A stretch of DNA of 64,000 nt, taken from NCBI GenBank assembly GCA_051362555.1, contig CM120649.1, forward strand, positions 14,694,001 to 14,758,000, in the 5' to 3' direction. The stretch comes from Lingula anatina. Its lineage: Eukaryota; Animalia; Brachiopoda. Both the position numbers and the translations under genes were made by a program. The notes below the pieces were generated by a model. The model was not told the DNA's origin. It worked only from the letters and a program-made list of their open reading frames with translations, and did not search any database. Position 1 is the first letter of the stretch. Every line of letters begins with the position of its first letter. Shown here one piece after another: positions 1-53,488 of the stretch.

Positions 1-3000
1 CGTTGCCCCGGAGCGACGGGAAAAGGAGCTCGTGACTGCATCACTGGGCCACACCTACTAGAGAGCTTAAAGAACACCACATTTGAAGGAGTTCTGGGGA
101 AGATCGCCTTTGATGAAAATGGGGACTTTTTGGGACAATACGACCTTGTGCAACTGATAGATGTTCGAGGACCCAACTATAAACAGGTCAAACTGGCCAC
201 ATGGGACGCCACTCTCAACGGCCTGATATTCGACGGTAAGCCAATAAAATGGAACTTGGACGACTCGGACCCTGCGAATCAAACCGTCCCCGAATCAGTG
301 TGTGCTAAACCATGCAGGCCTGGGGAGTTCTACATCCCAAAAGAACTCAAATGTTGCTGGGAGTGCCGCCACTGTAGGGACAACGAAATCACCATCAACA
401 ATGCCTCCACCTGCCTGGCGTGTCCCATCTTTCAATGGCCAGAACAGTCGACCTTCACCTCATGTGAGCCGATCGCAGCAGAGCACGTGCGATGGGGAGA
501 TCCATTGGCCATTGGCATAGTAATTGTAGCTTTACTAGGTCTCTTGGCTACAGTGGCCACTTCAGTTTTCTACATTCGATTCAACAAAGAACGCCTCATT
601 AAAGCCTCCAGTCGTGAACTCAGTTTCCTCATGCTCATTGGAATACTTCTCGGTTATGTAACGGCAATCATTTTCTTGGCGACCCCCAAAGATTATTTGT
701 GCTACTGTGAGTATTTGGGCTTCAGTCTTAGCTTTTCTTGGCTGTATGCACCTCTAGCGACCAGAACCAACAGAATTTATAGAATTTTCAACACTGGGAA
801 GAAATCGACCATTCGACCAAAATTCATCTCACCGAGGTCACAAGTGACAATAGCGACGATATTTATTACTGTTCAGGTAGGTCCTTTTAATAGGTCCTTT
901 TTATACTTGAAAGAAAATCCGTCTAATGCCTTTTATTAATTTAACATAGTAATTAGGGGCTCATGTCTTCAAAACAAGAAACTTAAACCCTAACAATGGC
1001 ACACCCTAGCCGTCAACCATGCTAATTTACATGATAATATATCTCTTAGTTAAAGAAACAAATCACCATCTCACACATATTTACTAAGCAGCCAAATTGA
1101 CGTTATATACCATCTTGCACTATGTTCAAAAGGAGTGGGGAAGTCCATAAAACAGGATAGAAAAAGAGTTTGTGCTCTAAAATTGTTCGTCTCATTGCAA
1201 TAATATAAAGATAAGTATTTCACGTAAAGGAACCGGAAAAAAGGTTGTTTTAACCAATTTAGACATTCATAGTGTATTGGTACCGCTTAAGTTGTTCATC
1301 TAAACTTTTAAAAGTAGCACATGTTCACTTTGACGGATTGATATGATTGCTGCATGAGAATTTACTAAAGGGGGACATAAACTCTGTACATTTGTGAAAC
1401 GTGATTCAAAATACATTTTATCCTATTTACTCTTACCTCAATGCTGGCCCAGCTCAGCCAGTTATTGTGTTAATAGTAACTAAACGGCTGCCGTTAAGTC
1501 TTACAAATGCAGCTGTCAGCCTACCCTGTGTAACATTGGCCAGCCCTGTAAACACAAAAGGTTAAGTTGGATCGACGATTTGCCTATTAGTATATTTTGC
1601 ATTTATATCGCCGTTTTTTATTGCGAATGACTTTCCTCTTGTTTATTCGCGTTCAAAGACGTTATTTTCAGTGTACTGTATTGTGTTTTTAATTCGCTGT
1701 ATTGCGCATTTTGGTATGATTGGGTAGACCCCGCGTGCCTGCCATGGTGGCATATAGCAACATTTTATTGGGGGTGTTAGAAATCTGGGTCTAGGCATGA
1801 CGTGAATTTAAATTTGGAGTGGTTCATTCTCTGCGTTTTCTTCGCTCATGTGTTTTAAGCGGGATCTTCGAGTAGGTGATAGCGAGCAGACTCCCAGGGT
1901 GCATTAAACCCTCGACGAAAGGTGTAATTTCCTTTTCTGTCCAAGAAAACCTATAAATTCCGAGGTTGGATTGGAAAAAAAGCACGGGTCATTTGCCGTT
2001 GCTTTTGTGGTTTCTTTGGTTAATTGAAGACTTCTTTAGATCTGTTCACCGGTGTAAACATACCGGTAGGCGTGCAAATCATACGCACTTGTACGTATTC
2101 GAAATCACGAGGCGGTCATTAACACATCGGTGGATATCCCGCCATGCTGAACATCTAAAAAACACAACCCCACCGCTGCCCTTAAAATGCTCGAAACCCA
2201 AACACGGCAAAGAACGTAAAAAATTCTAGACCTCAAGTATTGTTTTTGTTCTAGAAAATGTTTCTTTTATTTATACCTGTGTATTTTAACAATTGGTGAT
2301 AGAATTCTTGAAGTTCTTATTCACATTTATGGTACAATCGTTCTTTTGTTTCGATAGTGGGAGATTGTAAACAACATCTCTCAGTCTTGTTTTAAGGGTA
2401 TTTCATTCAGTAAATGGTAATCTATCATCAGATATAATTCTAAACAATATTTTCAATTCACCATGCAGGTTATCATAAGCATCATAACCGCCATAGTTGT
2501 ACCACCGACGGCAGAACTCTCCATGCCGGTGAAGACAGAGAGATTCGTGGAGCTCTACTGCAATATTCCCATAGAAGGTAATAACCCCTGGGAGATATAT
2601 TATGTCGTCTCTATATATTACATTTATATATTTATCGATTTGTATATTTATATTAGTGCCCTGTATAATAATACTTAACCACATTTGTTACAAAATGCAC
2701 ACAACTGGGAGTGGGGATGGGGGGAGGGGGGGGGTTATCGACTTTCGGAGGAGCTATCTCACGATTGTTAAAACCATTGTTATATGTTCATTTGTATGGA
2801 TATAATTTTTGCAGGACTGATAGCATTTTTGACGTACAACCTGTGCCTGATCGTCGTGTGCAGTGTCCACGCCTTTAAGACACGGAAGCTGCCGGATAAC
2901 TTCAACGAGTCGCGCTTCATCTCCATGACGGTCTATACCACCCTGGTGATATGGCTGGCTTTCATTCCGACATATTTTACAACGGGCAAGGCTTACTACA

Positions 3001-4281
3001 AGGTGCGTTCAAAGATAATTTTTTCTTCAATGAGCAGCCTATGTTGAAATAATTAACCTCCAATATAACAATAATACAATATTATTAGAAAAATTCAAGG
3101 TAAATTATTTCAATATTAAGCTGTTGATTGAAGAAAAAAAAATACTTTATTCTTATAACATAACACAGCTGATGAAATTCTTCTCTGAAAGTACGTTCAA
3201 GGTTCAAGGCCTGGTTTCTTTGGCGTATTGGTTGATGTGCATGCAATACTTTCCATGAATTCTATGGCCGACATACACCACACTCAACAATCCTTGAGGC
3301 AGATTTGCACATTTCAAAAAAAAAAAAAAAAAAATCTACGCCTAATATATAGGGCTGCCTTGTTGTGTCACATTTAAAATCTTGAAACACAGTGGGTAAG
3401 AGGGGCGATAAATGTAGCTAGAAAACTATAAATACCTCGAGATATTCTTCAGTAGTTATTGATTATCTTTACCTGAACAGAATTGAGAAAATAAAACCCA
3501 GCCACCGGGACATTGTTTACATTTTTAGGTAGGGACGTAAATATAGAAAACGGCGCCGATGGAAAGCGTGGCAATAACGCCGACTAAAACAACAGACAGT
3601 CTAAAAAGATTCTACCGCTACTGATTGCTGCCGGTGTCAGTGTGAACGCGGTTTGGTTGACCGCGGTTTAATCGGAGTAAAGTCGACCGCGGTTATCGTT
3701 CTAATGTGAATGGCCTATTAGTGGCGTTCCCTATAAATGGCGTCACAGCAGTATCTAAGCCACGCCACCGTTATTGTGTTTTTATCACCGGCGCAGCCAA
3801 GCAAGTCCGTCATGCCGTAGACTAATTTTCTTCTTTATCTTAAAACATTTTGCAGACGGGTTCATTTCCACCGCATGTTCTATTAGACCTATACCTTGAC
3901 TTTATTTGTTTTTATATATTTCCTTTACAGGTTATCCTTCTAGCCTGTGCCCTAATCATCAACGACACCGTCGCCCTGTCATTCTTGTTCCTCCCGAAAG
4001 TCTACGCCGTCCTGTACGTGGATCAGGACACCCTTAAGATGACCTCGACAAACCCGGGGGCCAGCGTAAGCGGAGTGAACGCCACCAAGTCCACACAGCA
4101 TCAAGTGCACCCCCAACCCGCTACGGTGCACGATACCCTCGATCCGTACCGTATTAATTCCCCAGTACCCGGGACTTCCGCCATGGACGGGGAGATGGAG
4201 AGACCGGCTGGGTATTATGGACCAGAGGCCGTGTTGACTCCAGTGCAAGATCTGGTTGCGCGGGACAGCGTTGTCCAGTAG
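1..4281 (+). CDS. Metabotropic glutamate receptor-like class C GPCR, 5'-truncated; exons <1-876, 2469-2577, 2815-3002, 3931-4281
   Basis: Frame 1 is open from base 1 (end of the Venus flytrap domain, FDENGD). It is followed by the nine-Cys domain (PESVCAKPC...CCWECRHC...CLACP) and 7TM motifs IKASSRELS, RTNRIYRIF, AFKTRKLPDNFNESRFI, IWLAFIPTYF, FLPKVY. GT-AG junctions join in frame. Confidence 0.93.
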
Positions 4282-7067: not shown

Positions 7068-9482
7068 AATGCATAGTACGCATAGAACCGCGCCAATATC
7101 ACGAGAAAATATTGTCTTTTTATTCGATGTTTTATACCATTTCTAATTAAATAATTTAGTATCTGGCCAGAAGTGAAAGCCATCACGTCTTCCGGGCCTT
7201 GCATTTTTGAAGAAAATATCGATATGCGTTTAAATAATTATTCCACTGGTTTTATAGCTTTAAATGGATGTATTTGGAAAAAGAACACTGTAGGATATGG
7301 ATTCATACAAAAATAGCCTTTGGGATAATTCAAATGTGTGTAGGCCTACACTGTTACACCTGGAAGATTGCGAATTATAATTACTTGGAAATGTTTCGAT
7401 GTGATTCTTTTCTCTCTTCCATTTAACGCACTGTTACACTTTACTGACTTTATTGGCTTTTGAAGCCACATGCAGAGATTTATGCCTCTACTGTAGTGGT
7501 TTGCGTTACCAATCCTTATACAACTATTGAGTGATCGATTTGTGAGGCTTTCGAAATTATGACAAGCATAGAGAATAAACCCCTACAACAACCGTACGCT
7601 TAAAATGCACAACATATTTAAATGCTCGGTCTTCATTTCATCTATTGAACACATACCCACAACCACAACAACCGTACGCTTAAAATGCACAACATATTTA
7701 AATGCTCGGTCTTCATTTCATCTATTGAACACATACCCAGTGCATTAGATGAGGCTGGAACGAGAGTAAAAGATAAAACTTTAATTATATAAAGAATTCT
7801 TGTAACAATATTTTGCAATGCAAAGCGCTTACTATGCGAGCTGTCCCTATACACCTAGTATCTCGACCCTTATTGATTCATTAAGAGGCCAGATGATATA
7901 GATTATCGACTAGTTTTATCGAAAAATCGTTCTGCTTTTCTTTGCCAATGACCAATCAAAATGAATAATGATTGAAATATAAATAGCTTACATCATAATT
8001 ATGGTAGGAACTTATAATCAGTTATGTGTAGGTGAATAGACTGAAACGGTCAAAATATAATTATCACGAATATCTAAGTGCATTGTAGTAGTAGGCCCCA
8101 TATAATTAATAGACATATCCTTTTTCAAGTTTGATTTATTAACCCATGCAATAGTGATAGTGATATTGGAGACGGGCTGGACGGCCGGTGTGACAGGAAT
8201 GGCAGTCCTAGGAATGGAAGTCCGGAATCCCATATGATTAGTGCAAGTCAGGGTTATTCGGAGTATTGGAGTTGGTACCGGTATATGGGTCAAATGTCAC
8301 CTGCACTAAGTAATGGGGAAAGAACTACGGCTCCTGTCACACCTGGTTTAAATTATTACTTGAGAGAGAGAGAGAGAGAGAGAGAAGATGAACCAATAAC
8401 AGCCGAAATAATCTCATAATATTACAACATTATGCAACTCACACATATTACTTCTTTCTTTTCCAGATACTCTTAAAGAGGTAGATGTCTTATCTGAAGG
8501 CATGAAATCTATGGATGTTGGAGAAGCATGGCACATTGCAAACTCCACCGCCAAACCACCAAAACCAACCACTGGTGTATTAATTGTCGCATACTTTCGT
8601 TCAGGATCTTCTTTCTTCGGGGAACTTTTCAACCACAACCCCAACGTCGCTTACATCTTTGAGCCTTTGTGGGAATTCGCGCATCGAGAGGCAGCTGGCA
8701 AAGCCCTATCATTCCTCGATGGATCCACGGTCAAGCTTAATTACACCGTCCGAGACCAAAGACGGGACATTATAGTGGACGGATTGGCTGGATTGCTTGG
8801 TTGCAAACCGGATCGCGTGCCGCTGTCGGTTTTAATGCATCCGCTCTATCTAAACAGTGCACGGATGCGAAAGATGAGAGACTATGTGTATTGTAATGAC
8901 AAGAAAGACAGACCGTCCCGGAAATGCATACCGGTTTTTAACGAGATATGCCGAAAGGCAAGCGTTCGAGTTATCAAGAGCATTAGAGTGGACATGGAGG
9001 TGGCTGAAAAACTTTTAGAGAAGGACTCAGGCATAAGAATCATCCACTTGATACGCGATCCTCGGGCTTCGTTGTCGTCTGCTCTGAGTCTCGGGTTAAA
9101 CGATCCGCTGGAGTCTGCTGCGAACACGTTGTGTTTTTCCATGTTCCGAGATATCAAAAAGCGAAAAGAGCTGGAGAGGAAGTTTCCAGGGCGGGTTTTT
9201 CAAACGCGGTACGAAGACTTAGCAGAGCGGCCGACTGAAACACTTAAACGAGTCTATAGGAATCTAGATATGCCGTTACCTCTTCCTGTTAAAAAAGCTT
9301 TGACGAAGCTTGTACATGGCAGACGAAATTTAGATTCCTTTGGGACTGTGAGGAAAGATTCCAGCGCCACTGCGCATGCGTGGGTGAAGGCCATCTCAAA
9401 ATCCACAGCCGCAAAAATTGATGACGTCTGCTCAGCGCTCTATCCGTGGGCGGGTTATAAAAAGTTCGACTTACTAAGTTAA
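6821..9482 (+). CDS. Golgi carbohydrate sulfotransferase (CHST1/GlcNAc6ST-like); exons 6821-6908 and 8467-9482
   Basis: Exon 1 gives a short basic tail plus TM (MAPRKRDCSKIIGLLVIALLQMVLLLRRS) ending phase 1 at GT, and exon 2 continues in frame. Motifs: 5'-PSB YFRSGSSFFGELF, YIFEPLW, VIKSIR, 3'-PB IHLIRDPRASLSS, RYEDLA. Confidence 0.88.
7585..7739. repeat. Perfect tandem duplication, 75-bp identical copies at 80-bp period
   Basis: acaacaaccgtacgcttaaaatgcac...gaacacataccca occurs at 7585-7659 and 7665-7739. Confidence 0.95.
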
Positions 9483-33200: not shown

Positions 33201-36200
33201 ATGGCGGTATCTGGATTGGCTACAGCAATTCTGGCAGTGATAGCCATACCAGTGTTTTATGGCGTTGTTAAGCTAGCGGGGCTCATCATTCGTGCGAGGA
33301 GATTTTACAAAATCCTTGCTCCAGTGCCCAGCGAGCCCATGCACTGGTTTTGGGGTCACCTGCATCTGGTAAGTGCCTGTACGGTGTAGAGTGCTTATTT
33401 GAACTATTTGTGTAAAGGGCTGTGTTCAAAAGATAACCGCGGGTAAAGCTAAGAGGAAATACGGCGGTCCCTTGAGTGAAATGTAGTAAAGAAAGAGGCG
33501 CAGACAATGCAGATATGTTAGCGAAGAGGCACTATATTGCACTGTGAATATACTCCTTAAGTCGGAAAGTGCACTCCCCCTCTCCCCCCCCCCCTCCCCA
33601 ACAAACACACAAACTTAAGTTGTTCGATCTTGTGTTCAGAAACCGAGGTGCCGCGTAACAAGTACACAGTCCGGCCTTCATTAGTCATACAGATCAGGGT
33701 TAGTGCGACGTGAGTGGGTCAAAAATTAATCAAGGTTGGGACTAGTTAGCCGTACAAACACCTGTCACGGGGCCTGACTCTCTCGTGCGTATATAACTAG
33801 ATGTCACTGGTGGGACAGCGTCTGTACTGAGTGTCCGTGTTGTCTGTTATTGTTTTGCACCTGAATAGCTCACAATCTGACCGCTGTACCCTGAGTGTCA
33901 GAGCAACGTAAAAGCTAGCTTGCTAAATATACCTTGTGGTGGAGTCGCTTTTACTGGTATTGCTACCATGGGTTATATATGAAATCAAGATCGAGCTGGC
34001 AATACCGGAATCTAGAACCTAGGGTAGACCGCTGTGACTACCTTATTAAATTGGATGCTGAAACGTTACACCTGGGACGGATGTTAAGGTAAGCGTGGCG
34101 AGAACAAAGGGGGCACACTTTTGATTCATCGTGGCCGGATCTCAGCTTGGCATGTTGGCTACACATATGCTCGAGATCACTTCGTTCAGCACATTGTATC
34201 TGGGGTGATGATAGACAGATCTGGGTCACATACACAATTAACTTCCCTGCTTGTACTTGAATGTGCAGATCGAGGCCTACGTGTGCTTCTGCACGCATGG
34301 GAAAAGATAACTGGAGGACCAGTAGAAGAAATGTATACGGTGACATCTATAGTGCCAACGTATGAGAAAAATTACCCTAAAATATACGTCGTATACGCAG
34401 GCAAAAGTTAGTGTATATCCGGAGAGAGATATCTATGGAATGTTTTGGGCATGTTACAAAAATTCCATACGCTGCTTGTATCTTCATTTTTAAACGCTGG
34501 AAAATAGGGTGATTTCACATGCTCAAAGTTGTGCATATAACCCATGTCACATACGATACTCATACATACGTACCTTTGTAACCCCCCCCCCCCCCACACA
34601 CACACACATACCCATACAATAATTTCCCGACCCATTTTTACATTGCGAGTGTGCAGATATCACGAAAAACAGCAAAAGTGGACACGTAAAACTTATCTAT
34701 GAAATTGATCCCCCAAAATCAGTATAATTTGCCGATTAATTTTAGGCTCCCCGACCAGACGAGAGTATGCTTGCTTATCACCGCAAACAGGTCGACCGTT
34801 TTCCGAGACTGAAGGTTGGATGGTTGACTTTTTTGTTTCCTAACCTCCATATACGGCATCCTGACTATTTTCCATTAGTCATAAAAGGTCTGATTTTTTT
34901 TCAATCAATAAAACTATTGTTTCAATGTATAACATTGCCCGGTGCCTATGTAGATGCGACTGGTTTAGCTTTAAGATAATAAACTCTTACTCTACGTAGG
35001 CTAATGTCGCTAAATTTCTATTTTAAATCACCTCTTTCACTCAGACCAATTTTACTAACACTACTTTTGCATGAAAACGAGCTTCTAAATTGATATACAG
35101 TAGCACATTAACTAATTACTAGCCACTAATTACTTTCTCTGTTGGCCTATCGTTAGAAGGTCAAGGTTTCAAAGGAAAAAGGTCAAGGTCTTGTAAGAGA
35201 GACAATAACAAAAATTAACAAATTCAAATCTTTTCATTTTCAATTAAAACGCGTAAAAAAATTAGCATTAGCCATATTCCTGTAAATCAGCCTGTATAGT
35301 ACTCTTGTTCTCTTATGAGAATGTGTGGGGGTGGTCGCTCAGGCCCTAGTTAAATTCCATTTTACACGCGGTTATGTCCATGACGCGGTTGATCAGTTTC
35401 AGTTTTAATTTTAAAAAAATTTAACCAGGCATCACGTACAAATCTTAATTGATAAGTAAAGAAGCAATGGGCAAAAACTGTAACAAAAATTATTCCTTGT
35501 ATGCAGAAATGCATCCATCTGGTCGAACAAGGAAGGGAATACCTTTTTTTCCCCTTTTGCAGCATTTACGGATACGCTTACATGTCTATTTCTTGACAGT
35601 TGCCCGGGCCCAATGAAGAAGGACTGGCATACTATCGCCAAAAAGCAAGGAGATTCCCAGTATGGACGGTTTCCTGGTTGACGCCACTGTTGCCGTCCGT
35701 GGTCATGAAAGTGCCCCGTATCTTACGCCCTGTACTGAAATCTCAAGGTTAAGGGAGAAATATGTGTTCCAATGGATATCTCATATACGCAAGGATTGGC
35801 GATTTTTCCATAGAAGCAAAAGTTTAGCAAGGTTTTGAACCTTTTTTATTTTGGACATATTTGCACCATAGAAAAAGTAAACAACCCGAGTGCTTAATAT
35901 TTGGTACATGGATGCTTCAATCTCTTTAAAGCAATCGTTCCCCGATATGGCGCGGTTGTATAAAATGGCGAAATGCTAAACTTTCGCATCTATGTTTATA
36001 TATAGACCCATATACGTGTAGATGACGGGTCTTGAAGTTATGTACATATTACATGTAGACTGCGCAACGAACATACAGGGACGCTCTTATATATCTCTAT
36101 AAAAAATCTTTCTCCGTGGATTGTCATTTGTGGGTGCCACGTCTATAGTTTCAGAGTCTTGTAACAGTTAACCATAGTTAATACTTCACCACTGCCACAC

Positions 36201-39200
36201 TGTGGGTGGTGGATTTAACTATTTTGCTGGAAAATTAAGGGCGCGTTCCCAATCAAACTATCGTTCTACCTAGATCGATCCAACTCGGCGGGGATCCTCG
36301 CTGAATGTAATCATATAAACAGAACAATCCCTACTTCTGGCTTTGCGTACAATTCAGAAAAGCTTGTGTTTATGGCAGTGTGTAGGAAACAAGAGGAGGC
36401 GTGTTAATCTGTTAAGCTGATTGCATTCAGCGAGAGTCCCGCACGGAGTTTGATCGATCTACGTAGAGCCATACTTTCATTGTCATTGGGAACAAAGCCC
36501 TAAGTTACCGGGAATGTGTTTGTTTCCCCATTTTCGGACGGAGAAGTCCAATATTTTGATTTAGAAAGTATTCAGTTAGGAGAATTAAATAAGATTATAT
36601 TTTCCACAGTTTCCAGGAATGAACGAAGCCGGCCTTGCTTACTACCGGAAGCATGGGGCAAAATATCCTCGGATAGAAAAAGGATTTTTAACGCCATTGA
36701 TCCCTATTGTGGGATTGAAATGTCCAAGCGCATTTCGGGCTATTTTGCAAGGTTTTTTACACCACTTTTCCCAGTTTTGTGAGATAATTAGTGCAATGTT
36801 TCCAAAGCATGTCAATGATCCTGCAATCGTTACGGAACAGCAGCTTCTAGCTTAAGGGGTTCGATACGAAAAAAGGGCTACATTTTGGGAAAATAGCCCT
36901 TTCTCAGTTTCATTTAAATGAAATACTTATTCTAATATGAGGGCTATAAAATTGAACAGAGTAAAAACGTCTTTTTGTTGTTCAAACCATACAACGCTTT
37001 TTGCACACAGCAAGTGTTTATATTCTACGTGCTGCTTATAGTGGCGAGGTTGCAATCTATTTCCGACGTAGCTCTATAAAGTTGTAAACTTTGCCTTTAA
37101 TTTTTCTTTTTCTTGTCATGAGCCCCTATTTAATATTTTTTGCCTTTATATTGCTAAAACCAAGATGGAAGTTTACAAGAAAATTTCCTGGCACTGACCT
37201 GCAGTATTCATTGATATGCATGATAATATAAACGGAGATATCTGACACTGTTTATCTCCGCATTATCTGAACGAATAGCGGAGTAGGATTCTAACGTGTC
37301 GAACCCCTTCAGCTAGCTTCCTATGCATGTGCATGTACAGACAAGTTTCCCTTTACAATTGCCAGTGCAACTAGCCGCAGAATTGCTGGTTATTCAGGTG
37401 TTTGCCCAGCATCGCCATGCTGATTGGTTATGCATCACATTGGGCGGGTTTCAAACCGAGCTAGGCAGACCTATGTAGCATTTTGACCCGACCCGTCTTC
37501 GGTTACGTCACTGGGCACGAAATCACAAAAAAAAAAATGAAAATTGAAAATAATTCACAAATTTCTTTTTACTACATCAACTCTGGCAAACGCCAATAAA
37601 ACAAAAGCAGACCCGGTAAAATTTTTATATGTGCTAGTAGGTTTTAACGTTTTTGGCACTGGCTAGCTTTTCGTAATTCAATCAGGATCAAAATGCAATG
37701 TAGAAAGTGATTAAGATGCTCTTTTAATTTTCTCAGATAATGACTTTACAGATAAGTTTACATACATAACCAATATAACTAATATTGGAATTGTAACTAT
37801 TCTGACTTTGCTCATTATAGATAATGAATATATTAAATATCTTCAGAATAGGTAAAAGATTTGTGTCCTATGGTTTGCAACTACAGGAAGTTTAATAAAA
37901 TACCAAGATTTCAATTTACAGTTTCCTGGAATGAACGAAGCTGGTCTTTCTTACTACCGAAAACATGCGATCAAATATCCCAGGATAGAAAGGGGAAATA
38001 TCACACCATTTTTAGCATTTGTTGGACTGAAATCTCCTGATACCTTAAAAGCTATCATAAAAGGTTTAAGTGGCATTCTTTTGATATGTACATTATTTGA
38101 GCTCAAGTTTTGGCCACGTTTAGAGTCGTATTCAAATGACTTAACGTATAGATATTCGTGGCACGTTACCAGAAACATCATTTGGACTAATTGTAGTCAG
38201 TATAAAGACTGCCCTCTTATATAACATTGGGTTCACAGCTGGTGGTCAAGCTCTCAATTGCAATCAAATTTTAAGTTGAATCACTTTGTCATATACATTC
38301 GCCGTAAAAGAAATAGAATTGGTTCGTCATGTGAACGTACGACTCAAAACGGGTTTGAAGCTTAAATAATTACCAAAATCGTAAAACTTGCGTTTGCACC
38401 TGCTTTTTTTGCGTGATATAGTTTTGTCTCTGTTGCCAGTGCTTGCCTCAGAAACGGAATGGTTGTTTAATGCGGGGGCGCAATGCCTTTCCATGTATTT
38501 GCGTTTGTTTAAGAAAACTTTATTTCATCTAGGCCTTCGTTTTCTAAGGTTTCATTGGGTATTGTTTAGTTATCACCAGGCGACGTCATTTGTACCTAAA
38601 AATACCTTCCATTTCCTCCCTGTGTGTTCGTAACGGTCGCAGTAACGCTACCATACTTACTACAATAACTATGTATGAAATTGAACTCCCCTGCATGAGC
38701 ACCAATATTGTATTGCGGATTTTCCCGGTCTTCCTGGCATAACTTTCCGGTTTTGTTAACCACATCGAGCTTTTGTTTTGTTGTTGCTTGTAATTGGCAC
38801 ATTTTCGAATCAAACGGTAAAGGGATAACGACTCTTCATATGAGATTCATGTTTCACATTAAATACATTGTAAACAATTCATAGAAATATAATAAATTCT
38901 ATTTTACCACCAAAACGGCGATTGGCGCAATTGTTCTGGAATCGGACCACGTGACCTCCATAGAGGATTTCCCTTTGTTAGAATCTTTAAAAAAAACATA
39001 GACTAACTTTGAATATTAGAAAGAATTCATTAACCTTTCTTAAGTATGAGAAAATTGTCGTTTATGCCAGGAAAATCTTTTTTTTTTTTTTTTTTTTTGC
39101 CAAAATGAATAGCTGTTATCCTTTGAAATTCTGCCAATTTTTACTTAGCAAGTTTCATAAAGTTGTGGAAGGAGCGTCATGCCTTGCTTTTGAAATTATA

Positions 39201-42200
39201 TAATTATTCAATGCTTTGCTTTTTGCTGCTTTGATAGATTTTCGATCTCGGAGAAACCGCTTTCATTCTCATTGTCTTAGAAAATAGATTACGCTTAAAT
39301 CCTACGTGCAGCATTAGATATTTATATCGAGTGTATGCCTTTGTTGTAATCTTTTACAAATAGTAACTTTTTTGTAGCTAACTAACTTACAAAAACTTAC
39401 AAATTAATCTTGCTATAAAACATGTACAAATACTTCTATTCACTTCCATTATCATTATTTGAAATACGCGTTTGTACTTCGAATGAATTTTCAGCAAGTA
39501 AATGAAATATTTATGAACATCTTCGTCACATTGAAGCCGTCTTTTATTCAGAGCCCAAACCAAGTTTTTTGGCCTACGAATGGCTTAAAGAGTGGCTCGG
39601 AGATGGTTTGCTGATTAGTAAGGGAAAGAAATGGGCCCGGAATCGAAAACTACTGACCCCAGCGTTCCACTTTGACATACTGAGGCCTTATATTCAGGTT
39701 TACAATGAAGGTGCTGACAAACTGTTGGTGAGTGGTATTAACTCAATTACCAAAACCCGAGTTGCCAACTCTAAACGTTCACGTGTATTCTAGTATTAAA
39801 ATTATTTAGGGCATAATAAACCTAGAGATCTTTATCTGTTATTAGCATAAGACGATAAGCAATAGATCTACGAATTTTGAGTATTGTCATGTTGGCGACA
39901 TTTAAGTTTTTAATGACTAGACCTTGTCGCAGAAAGTTTATGGCGAATGCAAGTTGATAGCGTGGATGTCCTAATGAATGACTATTCATAAAATCACCCA
40001 TGCTAAACATGACTGGATTTATCCCGTTATTTTTGCAGCATAAAATGTCACAATGCGCAGAGACCGGAGAGCGTTTGGAGTTGTTCAGTAACATCAGTTT
40101 GGCAACGCTAGATATACTCCTGTGTTGCGCATTTTCTTATGAAAACGACATCCAAGAGAAAGGGTAAGAGTATACAAAAGCTTTCTTCCAGTAAGGGTTG
40201 GGTTTACTGGTTCTTTCAGCGTTTTGTTACACTTATATATATTTCCCTTTTTGTCGAAAAATTTTTCTACACTGTACCGGATATTTCTCTTGATATTCCG
40301 TGCACATTTTAACTGTGTCAACTGAAAGGTATTACAAAAGAAATGACGTCATCAACTAGATGACCTCTGGCAGAGATCGAGCAAAGCAAAGGGATACAAT
40401 ATGAAATGTCCACGTATGAAACTCTTCTCTGTTCTTGTTTCACCGTCTCAAAAATGTCTATATTTCAGGGAGAGTCACCCGTACGTCCACGCTGTCTCAG
40501 AGATGCAGGACGCCATGATGCACAGGGTTCTGTAAGTTGTGGTGTACACTTTCTCTGACACATTTGCTTAATTGGATAAGTTTTATTTAACAAGATCTAA
40601 TGTACTATTTTTGATTGTGTTAGTAATACAGGCGGTTCCACGTTCGAGTTGATGGGTGTAACGAGCATGGGGACTGAGAAATGGTGCTCTGCACAGTATT
40701 TGTCAGTCCGTATATTTAATAACATGTTTCAAAACTTGAGCTCTTGTACTTGTTATCATTCAACGGTCGATGAGAATTTAAAGCAGCTAGACTTCAATGA
40801 TTGGGCAATGTTTTCTGCCTCTGTCTAGCACCCCGTGGCTCCACCTAGAGTGGATATGGCGACTGAGCCCTACAGGGAGGAAGTTCAAGAAAAACTGCAA
40901 ATATGTTCACAGCGTATCTGAAGAGATCATCAGAAAGAGGCGAGAGACTTTGGTAAAATAGAATCTTGGATATTTTCCCTCCTTATATTTATATATTGCC
41001 GCAAATCTGTAAATTGGTTGTTTTTACCATGCAAATGACCTACCGTTTTAAATTTGAGGGATATTAAACTTAAGATGCTCTTGCAGAAACGATTTTTTCT
41101 TACTACAACCTACGAACAGTTTCTTGCAAACTGTTTACTTTGCGGCAAATTTGTAGCGAATTTCCTGCAAACTTTCAATCTTGATAAGGGAGCTTAGATT
41201 AAGGGACAACAAAGCAGCAAGGTTATTTAAAGGGATAATAACTCTTCGTTTTGGCCAAAAAATGAATTTTCCTGGAGTAAACAACAATTTTCCCATCTTT
41301 ACCAATGGTTAATGAATCCATTTTTACATTCAAAGTTAGTCCCTGTTTTTTTCTAAAAAGTTTGGTTTTTTGTTAAAATCTCTTAAGAAATTATAACAGA
41401 CTACAGCCATCAGTGGAGGTCACGTGATCTGAAGACAAGCTCCGATATCAGAATAATAGCTATAGCTGCTGTTTTTGTCGTCAAACAGAATATATTATAT
41501 TTCTATGAGTTATTCACAATATTTTATTGTGAAATATAGATCTCATACGAAGAGTTATCATCCCTTTAACACGTGAATCACACAAATAGCATACACTATG
41601 CTTTCAGAAGCAGGAGAAAGGCAGCAACAAAAAGCGAGCACGCTATCTTGACTTTTTGGACATTTTATTAACTGCTCGAGATTCTGACGGTCAAGGGTTG
41701 ACTGATGAAGAAATACGAGATGAAGCTGACACATTTTTATTTGAAGGTAGGCGTAATAAACGTGTTATAGCAGAGAGAGGGAGAGAGAGAGCGTGCAAAT
41801 TATACTTTTGGGCAATTGCAAAGAATTATTGGTTCCATGCTCGCATCAATGCCTCAGAAAAAGGTCATTGCTCGGCTTTTGAATATGTGTATGAATAATG
41901 ACCAATCGTTATCTTTAAAAATTCCGAAACCTACATTTCCATAAGGTTGAGAGAAATTCGGGATAAACGTTGAATTTTTTTTAATTTCAAAACTCTACTC
42001 CATTTGTTAATTCAGTTAAATCTGCATTTGTCAGTGCGAACGCCAACGTAACACTTTACTCCATAAACAGTCAGAACCCTCTTACAGGCCATGACACCAC
42101 GGCCAGCAGTATCTCCTGGAACCTGTACTCTCTGGCAGAACATCCCGAGGTTCAACAGCGAGCTCAGGCGGAGATAGACGCCCTGCTAGATGGAAGGGAG

Positions 42201-42818
42201 GACCAAACCGTTACCTGGTAAGATACTCGCTGTACATTTTTAGCGGCAAAGCCATTGAAATATGCTTTAAAGTCGAAATTTTCTCGGCAGTTATGAAAAG
42301 TTTGTACTTTGGCAATTAAAAGAAAGATGTTGACATTTTTTGGATTATTATTATAATTATTTTGATGTTTTCAAAAGGTCTAACGCTTGAATTAAGACAT
42401 CTTTATCGTAGAAATTGGGGATTGACGCAACGTTGCAATAATGCTATAATGGGGGAATGTTGTCAGGCAAATTAGTTCAGTTGAATAGTTTTACATATTA
42501 ATCTATTTATGCAGGGACGATATCCACAATTTACCGTACTTGACGATGTGTATAAAAGAGGGGATGCGGCTCCATGCGCCAGTGCCATTTGTACAGAGAG
42601 AGCTCAGTAAGGATATGGAAATAGATGGGGTGACACTGCCTCGTGGTCTTCTCTTAGACCTACATTTGTATACATTACATCATAACCCCACAATATGGGA
42701 TAATGATATGGTAAGTGAGCTGGGAAAGCCACTTGTCAATGACGTCATGAAAGCAAATTGTATCGATGTTTATAAAATTTACTTTGAACTGAACCGTTTT
42801 TTATAATATGTTTGTATC

Positions 42819-42849
<31 letters not shown>

Positions 42850-44064
42850 TTAGTGATATATTTTTTGGAATGCGTTGCAGAAAATTCGTTACACAATGCT
42901 TATTCGTTACTAAACTAAATAGACAAATAGAAAAAATGTTAATAACATTAAATCTAGTCGGTTAAGTTTTGGGCTACAAAAGGAATGAAAACGATTTTCT
43001 TAAATATTCTCATGCACGCAGTTATTCCTAATTGCATAAGTCGCATAAGATTTTGTATTTCTTCTGGCTTGATGTAAAACCTAATTGTGTCTGTAATACT
43101 CTTTACAGAGAGTTCTTCTTTTGGGTCAATCGTTACGTAACTCTGGAGTAGGTCATAATTATTTAATTTAAAAGAAAATCCCGTTCCATTATTTCACAGG
43201 AGTACAGACCAGAAAGGTTTTCACCAGAGAATATAGAAAAGATGGATCCGTTCGCCTACTTACCATTTTCTGCCGGACCAAGGTACTATTAGAAGTATAG
43301 ATTCTGTACCTATAGTTCCTAAAGAATTTTGCTTTAATCCGTTCAAGTGTGAGAAATCATACGGTTTTTGCATGTCTGTGAGTATGCCGTATAGTTATAG
43401 TTGGAGGTATGTATAATTGGTGAATATATTTATATTTGGTTTTCCTTTATTTTCTTTATTTATTACCTTTGTATATTATGACAAACGTGTTTTAACAGTC
43501 AAGTCAGTCCAAGTTTTTGTTAGTGATTGATGCTTTTGAGATGGTTGAGATTGTATGTGATGAAATTATCTCTTTTCAGAAATTGTATCGGACAAAATTT
43601 CGCCATGCACGAGCAGAAGGTTGTCATAGCTAGGATATTACACAGGTATGGGGACGTTCCGTTAACAACTTTCTTTAACTTTTTGTTTTATGTTATAAGT
43701 CTCGTATTTTGTCATAGCCAGAGTTTAGCAAAATACATGGATCGTGTCTCTGTTGTTATCGGTAGACTCATTTGCTTTTTTGCTAATAATAATAATAATA
43801 ATAATTATTATTATTATTATTATTCATTTGAAACTACAATTTCAAGGAAGATTTTTTGTTTAAAGTTTTTAGGGGACAGCGAGTCGCCTTTGATCTCCTC
43901 TCCAGTTACTCTCATTAAACATTCCCGTTATGATTATAAAATTTTTCTGTTGGCCCGTTCTTAGGTTCACCCTGTCCACAGATCCAACCCACACCCCGAG
44001 GAAGAAGATAAGCTTGGTGATGAAGGCAGAGGACGGCATCTACATCAAACTTACGCCAAGATAG
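33201..44064 (+). CDS. Cytochrome P450, CYP4 family (CYP4F-like); exons 33201-33368, [one of four exon-2 variants], 39552-39727, 40039-40163, 40469-40531, 40829-40952, 41608-41746, 42088-42217, 42515-42710, 43200-43282, 43580-43645, 43965-44064
   Basis: N-terminal anchor, [40 protein letters not shown]4 I-helix [16 protein letters not shown]-helix EGMR, PERF, and heme motif [15 protein letters not shown]. All junctions are GT-AG and in phase. Confidence 0.95.
33763..34345. mobile_element. Possible solo LTR in CYP4 intron 1
   Basis: 583-bp GC-richer block bounded by TGTCAC...GTGACA, with internal TATA-like and ATTAAA motifs; no matching TSD seen. Confidence 0.3.
34746..34887 (+). CDS. CYP4 alternative exon 2A ([47 protein letters not shown])
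   Basis: tttag acceptor, 142 nt, open, phase 0 to phase 1, donor GTCTGA. Confidence 0.8.
35600..35747 (+). CDS. CYP4 alternative exon 2B ([49 protein letters not shown])
   Basis: gacag acceptor, 148 nt, open, phase 0 to phase 1, donor GTTAAG; missed by the ORF track. Confidence 0.85.
36239..36500. mobile_element. Fold-back MITE, family D (PIF/Harbinger-like)
   Basis: Termini gggcgcgttcccaat / attgggaacaaagccc, TAA on both flanks, long imperfect inverted arms. Confidence 0.75.
36610..36751 (+). CDS. CYP4 alternative exon 2C ([47 protein letters not shown])
   Basis: ccacag acceptor, 142 nt, open, phase 0 to phase 1, donor GTTTTT. Confidence 0.82.
36856..37307. mobile_element. Kolobok-like non-autonomous element
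   Basis: TIR ggggttcgatacg / cgtgtcgaacccc; TTAA on the left flank and TTCA on the right. Confidence 0.6.
37922..38063 (+). CDS. CYP4 alternative exon 2D ([47 protein letters not shown])
   Basis: ttacag acceptor, 142 nt, open, phase 0 to phase 1, donor GTTTAA. Confidence 0.82.
38821..38960 (-). mobile_element. Diverged fragment of the family C Kolobok-like element
   Basis: agggataacgactcttcatatgagattcat...catagaaatataata...cacgtgacctcca aligns with the reverse complement of 41410-41565. Confidence 0.6.
41231..41565. mobile_element. Kolobok-like MITE, family C
   Basis: TIR agggataataactcttcg / cgaagagttatcatccct with TTAA on both sides; the left ~155 bp recurs almost identically at 21211-21366. 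Confidence 0.8.
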
Positions 44065-52000: not shown

Positions 52001-53488
52001 CTAGGTACAGCATTCGAAGGCCACACTGTTTAATGCAGTGTCGTCGTCGCCTCTTACATTCTCCTGAAATTTGACTCTTAGACCGCAGATGAAGTAACCT
52101 TTATTACACAGTCTCCACGCCGACCAGGACCCCCATGGGCCACCGTTACCGGAGCTGAGTACTGCACCGTCGCTACACTTCAACTCTAGATCGTTAGCTG
52201 CCGAATCATCGAAGATGCCCTGATGTCCCTCTACCTTCAAGCGGAAGCCAATAACGTAACTGAAACGATAGGAAATATGATGCAAGACAGGCAAAGGTTA
52301 AATTAATTAATAAAGGGATCAACTATAATTTACATAAGCGCTTTAAAACAATTACAGGCCCGTAGCCAGCAATTTCAAAAGGGGGGTTCTTTTTCTGAAA
52401 AAGTGGACCTTTTTCCATATAAACGTCACGTACATAGATCAGATTTTACCCAGAGTGGACCTTTTCCCAGCAAAAGGGGTGGTTCTTTCGAACCCCCCGA
52501 ACCCCCCTGGCTACGGGCCTGAATTATAAGTTATCTTCCTAGGTGCTTTTTCAATGTAACTTTTTTTATTAAACAAGAAGAAAGCAGTGATGTTGATTGA
52601 ACCCTCTATGTATATAGATGAACCGTATGTATATAGATGAATGTATGTTTGTAAGTATATATATGTTTTCATGACCGTCTGTCAGTCCGTTTACCATTAA
52701 TACAGAACAGGAAACCATCATTACCTGTCGGCACTACAAAACACTGCCAACCCCCACGAGCCCCAGATTCCTCCATGTGGAAAGAGATGTGCGTGCTTCT
52801 CGCAGATTAGAGCGATCGCATTCAAGGCTGAATCATCGCCTAAAATGGGAAACAAGAATGTGCATTGGAGTTTACTTCTGTCAATAGAAAATACCCCCCC
52901 CCCCCCAAAAAAAATAATAATAATAATTATATATATAACGGGTATATACGCGTAAAACTATCTCTTTCTATCAGTATTTATCAATGAAAAATATTATGGC
53001 AATCCTGCTTTGTTTTTGTTAAAATTTACCGGAATAGATCCTTTCAAGTTGAGCTCCATTTTAGGCTGAAACAATTTCAAAATTTTAAGTTTGAGAATCC
53101 TGACTACAATGAAGTCTAAAATTTAGCTGATATGTCTGTTAAACATGTGAAGAATACAAAATATAAATTTTGAATTTCTACTTGTCTGTCGACCTGGTCC
53201 ACAGAAAGTCGTCGCTCGTTATACAACTTATTTATCGACATCGACGGAAAATGAGAAAATACCGTCACATTCTTTTGATAAGTATAAAATGAATTTATGC
53301 AATTTATATATCTTACCTAGCCCTTGCCTGCCCTCTACCCTCAACTGAAACCCTTTAACTTTCAGCCCAGGGCATGATTTCTTGGCGGTCCAAGTTCCCC
53401 AAGGGCCTCCATTGAGGGCGTACATCTCGTACGCTGTGCAGTGTATGATAATGGCAAGCAAGAAGACAGCTCTAGTGACGTGTGCCAT
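52001..53488 (-). CDS. VMO1: Vitelline membrane outer layer protein 1-like (beta-prism); exons 53488-53317, 52839-52725, 52259-52001
   Basis: Signal peptide followed by three repeats of the pattern GG-P/I-WG-x-W...C...G-F/L-x-L/V-x-V/F-E/Q...DD-S/T-A-L/A-N; the exons join in frame to TAG. Confidence 0.88.
52355..52521. mobile_element. Short TIR element, family E, in VMO1 intron 2
   Basis: Same 15-bp TIR with a 5-bp TSD AATTA. Confidence 0.85.

Follow-up and report, generated by a model that had tools for sequence, protein, structure and literature searches.

A cassette of four alternative second exons, likely mutually exclusive, in a CYP4 gene of Lingula anatina

A single CYP4 gene of the brachiopod Lingula anatina, which spans 33201-44064 on the forward strand of the window studied here (the whole analysed stretch of 64,000 nt, positions 14,694,001 to 14,758,000 of contig CM120649.1 in assembly GCA_051362555.1), carries four tandem copies of its exon 2. 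The four-exon cassette is real, and with a probability of about 0.8 we consider its copies to be spliced mutually exclusively, giving up to four enzymes with a shared core and predicted differences in substrate entry. Most likely this is a mutually exclusive cassette that is convergent with the exon pair of human CYP4F3. The types of mechanism are already known and the four isoforms are already present in automatic annotation; new are the likely recurrence of the swap at one exon across phyla and a candidate docking site for RNA pairing.

Gene structure and exon 2 copies

The coding parts of the gene are:

33201..33368, +, CYP4 coding exon 1 with membrane anchor and Pro-rich hinge; single copy, consensus donor, ends in phase 0
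34746..34887, +, alternative exon 2A, 142 nt (47 codons + 1 nt); most divergent copy; RefSeq isoform X4
35600..35747, +, alternative exon 2B, 148 nt (49 codons + 1 nt); RefSeq isoforms X1/X2
36610..36751, +, alternative exon 2C, 142 nt (47 codons + 1 nt); RefSeq isoform X3 and XP_023932769
37922..38063, +, alternative exon 2D, 142 nt (47 codons + 1 nt); closest to 2C; RefSeq isoform X5
39552..44064, +, constitutive exons 3-12, P450 core; exon 3 begins in phase 1
39552-39727, 40039-40163, 40469-40531, 40829-40952, 41608-41746, +, constitutive exons 3-7
42088-42217, 42515-42710, 43200-43282, 43580-43645, 43965-44064, +, constitutive exons 8-12

Re-reading the sequence reproduced the positions and lengths of the four alternative exons as given in a preliminary description of this DNA, together with their AG/GT ends and open frame 0. 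When all combinations were translated, 4 of the 16 inclusion patterns gave an open reading frame, namely the four that contain one copy only, and the full product is a P450 of 503 aa, or 505 aa with exon 2B. The remaining 12 patterns stop at residue 76-164; inclusion of all four copies restores the frame arithmetically, yet meets a stop at residue 108. The expectation that one copy yields a normal P450 and that none, two or three do not was thereby borne out. The copies are tandem homologous exons of the same phase with intact splice sites and open frames, as expected of a mutually exclusive exon cluster.

The exon 2 copies match one another in tblastn searches with E values of 2e-19 to 2e-5, and the best other match of exon 2 in the window has an E value of 0.16 or worse, which places their paralogy above chance. 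An exon 2 profile gave exactly four matches in the six frames of the window, with an E value of 0.22 for the fifth-ranked one, so that neither tblastn nor the profile found a fifth copy in the 64 kb. A second exon 1, a second exon 3 or a further CYP4 core exon was likewise not found in the 64-kb window, in line with the earlier statement that the rest of the gene is single-copy. The product matches the Pfam p450 domain (E 1e-108), the P450 motifs ExxR, PERF and heme Cys are present (positions 371, 425, 444), and the CYP4 I-helix Glu motif lies at residues 305-317. This Glu is used by CYP4 enzymes for covalent heme attachment. CYP4B1 was the top match by sequence as well as by fold (template modelling score 0.89).

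The copies are old and under purifying selection, which is weakest for 2A. They share 14-22 of 47-49 amino acids in pairwise comparison, or 30/47 for 2C and 2D (30-64% identity in protein over all pairs), and in each of the six copy pairs conservation is higher at the second codon position than at the first and third. Synonymous divergence (dS) is 1.09 between 2C and 2D, against a nonsynonymous divergence (dN) of 0.24, and lies above 1.2 or is saturated for the other pairs; the introns flanking the copies share no similarity. In a neutral simulation at a distance of 1.0, open frame and AG/GT ends were retained in 0.5% of 5000 runs. All four alternative exons have weak donors, with a pyrimidine at position +3, compared to none of the ten constitutive exons, the four not being independent of each other.

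Annotation and RNA reads

The closest proteins are RefSeq models of L. anatina itself. One RefSeq locus (XP_013393505-11) models all four isoforms, with the exon assignment listed above, in agreement with the earlier view of one gene with four alternative exons. The window differs from the RefSeq proteins at 5/456 constitutive and 8/190 cassette residues (13 in total), and the RefSeq proteins therefore represent a different haplotype, whose four copies are likewise open and lie on one contig. NCBI is said to require transcript support for automatic variant models of this kind. XP_023932769, a second and near-identical Lingula model placed on a different contig, contains 2C; it may represent an allele or a recent duplicate. 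It also has an insertion of 38-39 aa after residue 204 (P0004), which looks like a retained intron and is probably a modelling error.

For RNA evidence, four of nine raw-read runs with the species label were mapped, at a depth of about 1x and with repeats crowding the tally. The gene is expressed, most highly in RNA run X1, with a strong 3' bias, and at least five constitutive GT-AG joints are seen in the reads. RNA run X1 placed 430 bases on the 2C bin, the highest depth for any exon 2 copy, and ~247 bases on the 2B bins, where the depth in RNA runs X1 and X9 is on the sense strand. In RNA run X9 the bin 35709-36095 holds 39 bases, precisely the number of 2B positions (the last 39) that fall within it, as expected for a read ending at the 2B donor. 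By inference, read depth supports the use of 2B and 2C.

Several observations weigh against exclusive use of all four copies. No exon 1-2 or exon 2-3 junction is among the joints listed, beyond which there are 19 further ones; the proposed junction check thus returned depth on 2B and 2C and no cassette junction among those listed. Neither 2A nor 2D has convincing reads in any of the four runs: the only depth on 2A is 0.13 in RNA run X7, in a bin containing a simple repeat, and no read reaches the 3' end of 2D. At such depth this absence says little. Exon 2A differs between the haplotypes at 4/47 residues, compared to 5/456 for the constitutive part (Fisher p 0.006), which points to relaxed constraint or diversifying selection. 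Finally, the RefSeq models X6/X7 (444 aa) begin at a Met inside 2C, so that exclusivity may leak; double inclusion or another 5' end could explain them.

These points bear on the view that only 2B and 2C, or fewer, are used and that 2A and 2D are rarely spliced or decaying leftovers. We consider it unlikely. The missing reads and the status of 2A as the most polymorphic copy with the longest branch speak for it, but the reading frames and splice sites of 2A and 2D are intact in two haplotypes even though dS exceeds 1 and the flanks cannot be aligned, RefSeq models include both, and even the best run offers only ~10 reads at the start of exon 3 (~259 bases on its first 27 bases in RNA run X1).

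Two side observations concern annotation and mapping. At several cassette loci (P0068, P0220, P0233-P0235) there are models that lack the N-terminus and begin with a Met located in exon 2 or close to it, possibly from double inclusion or other 5' ends. The dispersed intron repeats at 41227-41570, 38805-39191, 36224-36514 and 33887-34026 attract many reads from other transcripts, the first of them being very deep.

The swapped segment and its origin

An AlphaFold model of the 2C isoform (100-sequence alignment, predicted local distance difference test score 93.5) has a helix at residues 62-74, strands at 78-84 and 87-92 and a helix at 95-101 within the exon 2 part (residues 57-103). Exon 2 is therefore predicted to comprise helix A, two beta-1 strands and helix B, at the putative substrate entrance. 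For CYP4F3, A-helix, beta-1 and B-helix have been assigned to residues 67-114, next to the substrate access channel, and the variants are 27% identical there (PMC12784423), and the model thus agrees with the A-helix/beta-1 module proposed in the preliminary description. The proposed identity of position with the CYP4F3 swap also held: Lingula exon 2 aligns with 48 aa of a shark CYP4F-like protein, on which the CYP4F3A residues S69, E71, E72, L74, W91 and R100 fall in register, the equivalence being drawn through this shark stand-in rather than the human sequence.

The two systems are alike in other respects. Exons 3/4 of human CYP4F3 (CYP4F3B/CYP4F3A), and those of CYP4F2, are likewise homologous alternative exons for the same segment on one shared core (PMC12784423, PMC12380495, PMC4494069), and low identity between variants is common to both (27% in CYP4F3, 30-64% in Lingula). 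The sources describe the CYP4F3 swap as exceptional among human P450s and residues 67-114 as suspected to set substrate preference, there being no experimental structure (PMC12380495, PMC12784423); the isoforms differ in Km for leukotriene B4 and arachidonate (PMC12380495). By analogy with CYP4F3A/B, the Lingula isoforms would differ in their substrates, the swap of helix A, beta-1 and helix B changing which fatty acids or other lipids are omega-hydroxylated. Tissue control and substrate differences have been measured for CYP4F3. The Lingula cassette has four copies instead of two, and its gene belongs to a CYP4 clade different from CYP4F.

For coq-2, an invertebrate enzyme, the number of variants is reportedly two. 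Among the enzyme switches by duplicated exons in molluscs and helminths, both coq-2 (PMC7434440) and oyster AOX (PMC5589949) have alternative exons that change an invertebrate enzyme, tied to substrate choice in coq-2, but these enzymes are unrelated to CYP4, and AOX has two variants. Closer by family is Drosophila Cyp4d1, a CYP4-clan gene with conserved alternative exons in the N-terminal part, which are two alternative first exons, unlike the internal cassette of Lingula (PMC4040991).

Swaps of the same segment were found in other animals. Twenty protein clusters, picked for isoform names or several members and therefore giving no estimate of prevalence, contained 28 same-locus isoform sets outside Lingula; a common locus was taken from consecutive accessions and identity elsewhere in the protein, and proteins only were compared. 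Of the 28 sets, 15 contain isoforms that differ only within the equivalent of Lingula residues 57-103: Mytilus locus 1 (5 sets, 4 species), Mytilus locus 2 (2 sets), Haliotis (4 species), Ruditapes, Mercenaria (3 variants), Babylonia and Owenia (3 variants). In four scallop sets the swap is confined to residues 359-421 (K helix and the strands after it, exon 9, equivalent to 42515-42710 of the window), one Babylonia set swaps residues 205-224 (3 variants), one Dreissena set swaps the last part, and seven sets show neither swap type or are ambiguous; a Mytilus coruscus set with a length difference of 47 aa was left out of the swap count. Variants are kept between congeners (94% identity in Mytilus, 92% in Haliotis, compared to 53-55% between variants). 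In our literature search, with most subscription journals outside its reach, we found no paper describing the Lingula cassette or those of molluscs and annelids. The case is less singular than the preliminary description suggested: the isoforms are in automatic annotation, and so are the three-variant cases of Owenia and Mercenaria.

Some details of these sets and related observations follow. The scallop pairs P0106/P0211, P0111/P0214, P0215/P0250 and P0094/P0249 belong to a sister gene of Mytilus locus 1. The three Babylonia isoforms with a swap of residues 205-224 are P0171/P0240/P0241 (F-helix region, exon 5, equivalent to 40469-40531 of the window), and P0239 has a 21-aa insertion at this place. 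Two shark proteins named 'isoform' (P0362 vs P0375) share 47% at the exon 2 segment and 87% in the core, and two amphioxus proteins named likewise (P0363 vs P0366) share 53% and 88%. Divergence in exon 2 only is also seen in unionid mussels, Perinereis-like worms and other clams (P0125 vs P0136/P0147; P0074 vs P0071/P0073; P0084, P0088, P0097, P0110). Unionid mussels, Perinereis-like worms, sharks, amphioxus and perhaps other clams may thus have cassettes of their own; two shark copies, if true, may mean that the CYP4F switch predates tetrapods or has another origin there.

The preliminary description left two origins open, convergence with CYP4F3 or an ancient expansion of its switch. In a core tree of 45 rows, in which CYP4F is represented by two shark CYP4F-like proteins only, the Lingula gene falls into a clade of lophotrochozoan, amphioxus, echinoderm and hemichordate proteins (99/96) without vertebrates; the shark CYP4F-like proteins form a separate clade with fish and shark CYP4B/T (100/98), which has its own Owenia member. 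By this tree the Lingula gene does not group with vertebrate CYP4F and is not a CYP4F orthologue. Trees of the exon 2 segment itself used 49 columns, the first with 64 of 76 rows (near-duplicates and distant rows dropped) and two more with 32 rows each; the shark segment stood in for CYP4F, the human CYP4F3 exons lying outside these trees. The four Lingula copies group together in all three (98/85, 93/80, 92/85). The venerid and Mytilus locus 2 variants form groups of their own, Owenia and Mytilus locus 1 are partly resolved, and the Haliotis and Babylonia cassettes may share one origin. Two of the trees give the duplication order (2A,(2B,(2C,2D))) and the third differs, so that no order is claimed. 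The CYP4F3 exon pair has been dated to tetrapods and is reported as absent in gar, zebrafish, fugu and coelacanth in a supplement that does not cover sharks (PMC4494069). An ancient CYP4F3 expansion is unlikely, because the gene is apparently no CYP4F orthologue, its copies group together and the human pair is dated to tetrapods. Recurrent separate duplications are likely the better reading of the same-exon swaps in Lingula, CYP4F3, molluscs and Owenia; the Lingula cassette would have arisen within the brachiopod lineage, its exon being duplicated in tandem independently of the tetrapod pair and, probably, of most of the cassettes in molluscs and annelids. Recurrence accords with convergent tandem-exon substitution in other gene families, described in a source whose main text does not mention CYP4F (PMC9741552).

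Some points weaken the case for separate origins: pairing of 2A with an Owenia variant (Owenia_b) was not rejected in the approximately unbiased test (p 0.35), and in the exon trees, limited to 49 columns, the Lingula branches are long. There is a small chance, slightly below that of partly unused copies, that the switch goes back to the ancestor of Lophotrochozoa or of Bilateria and has a common origin with that of CYP4F3, the variants looking lineage-specific through gene conversion and loss. Swapping of the same segment in many lineages would fit such a history, as would the two shark and two amphioxus proteins that diverge mainly at this segment, and most of the 'single' genes are unchecked for hidden copies. 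On the other hand, pairing of 2B with the shark segment was rejected (p 0.021), the core tree shows the cassette genes in scattered positions (7 changes for 8 rows), in scallops the sister gene of Mytilus locus 1 has its swap at exon 9, and synonymous saturation argues against ongoing homogenisation; orthology with CYP4F is missing, and so is the CYP4F3 pair in gar, zebrafish, fugu and coelacanth, as said above. An assembly artefact from collapsed tandem CYP4 genes or merged haplotypes, for which the second RefSeq model on another contig might speak, is highly improbable, since copies of 30-64% identity are too far apart for alleles, and, moreover, the differing RefSeq haplotype has the same four variants on one contig, the window is free of N with unique flanks, and the same swap occurs in chromosome-scale assemblies of other species.

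Repeated invertebrate evolution of the swap, if true, would provide a natural panel of two to four entrance modules on fixed cores for testing lipid selection, and P450 diversity in molluscs and brachiopods would be larger than the number of genes suggests. A metabolic enzyme would also join the known examples of convergent tandem-exon substitution, among which ion channels are prominent (PMC9741552).

Candidate control of exon choice and surroundings of the gene

Two possible causes of mutual exclusion were rejected. Steric exclusion is out because the internal introns are too long (712, 862 and 1170 nt), and incompatibility of U2 and U12 splice sites because all introns are GT-AG, minor-class GT-AG motifs not having been formally scored. 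Control by RNA pairing is suggested by the following elements:

38616-38646, +, candidate docking site in the intron between 2D and exon 3; its complementary stretches for selectors A, B and C overlap
35556-35578, +, candidate selector A, 22-44 nt upstream of the 2B acceptor; -21.2 kcal/mol
36048-36082, +, candidate selector B; -35 kcal/mol
36820-36844, +, candidate selector C; -26.2 kcal/mol

The candidate docking site is predicted to pair with one stretch in each internal intron, and its predicted pairing with selector B includes a helix of 15 bp (36067-36081 with 38617-38631) with one G-U pair. The pairing statistic for three introns was reached by 2/300 shuffles and that for two introns by 4/300 (7/300 with either side allowed); the antisense strand scored near the decoy mean. 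Selector B stands out by itself (3/200 shuffles, and 1/40 in another test). Against a docking function, selectors A (85/200 shuffles) and C (43/200) are not significant singly, 4 of 76 real decoy stretches matched or beat the candidate, the top three of them resembling a repeat or G-rich runs, and the statistic, computed from stacking energies, was designed after the candidate had been seen. An upstream docking site is unsupported, its score being reached by 167 and 79 of 300 shuffles. The short motif common to the selectors showed no excess in the window (12 matches vs 12.1 expected). A second docking candidate lies at 38420-38452. Directly after selector C, the 2C-2D intron contains a 22-nt inverted repeat (36847-36868/37295-37316, 91% complementary), which could affect access to this selector.

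A downstream docking site has been described for Drosophila 14-3-3zeta, Mhc, MRP1 and Dscam exons 4 and 9, in sources that treat such control mainly from arthropods (PMC6071210, PMC4691838). In the layout of these clusters, the Lingula gene combines a single candidate docking site behind the exon copies with a single candidate selector in each internal intron, and the copies have weak splice sites. The Drosophila sites rest on cross-species conservation and compensatory mutation, whereas the Lingula site is a prediction from a single genome with moderate statistics. The chances that it acts in exon choice are about even; if confirmed, it would extend control of exon choice by RNA pairing to Lophotrochozoa.

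We propose that weak donors keep the copies silent by default and that the downstream site, at those same even odds, pairs with one of three competing selectors, while later copies are looped out. The exon before the paired selector would then join exon 3, and 2D would be used if no pairing occurs. Messenger RNAs that skip the cassette or include two copies would carry early stops and be removed by nonsense-mediated decay, a step we infer because all patterns other than single inclusion stop early. A wider proposal, tentative and in our view somewhat less probable than its failure, combines this competition in Lingula with a recurrent hotspot: CYP4 exon 2 would have become a mutually exclusive cassette at least six times (brachiopods with four copies, Owenia, two mussel genes, venerid clams, gastropods and tetrapods, perhaps also sharks and amphioxus), sister genes using other substrate-recognition exons.

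A domain scan of 40 window proteins, this P450 included, identified neighbouring genes; a palindromic repeat inside the CYP4 gene is listed with them:

2772-3044, +, class C G-protein-coupled receptor exon (7tm_3), neighbouring gene
8412-9479, +, long sulfotransferase open reading frame, neighbouring gene
52004-52297, -, VOMI-domain exon, neighbouring gene
36224..36514, no strand assigned, palindromic dispersed repeat resembling a miniature inverted-repeat transposable element, in the 2B-2C intron and no component of the cassette

A relative of the element at 36.2-36.5 kb seems to lie near 31.0 kb.

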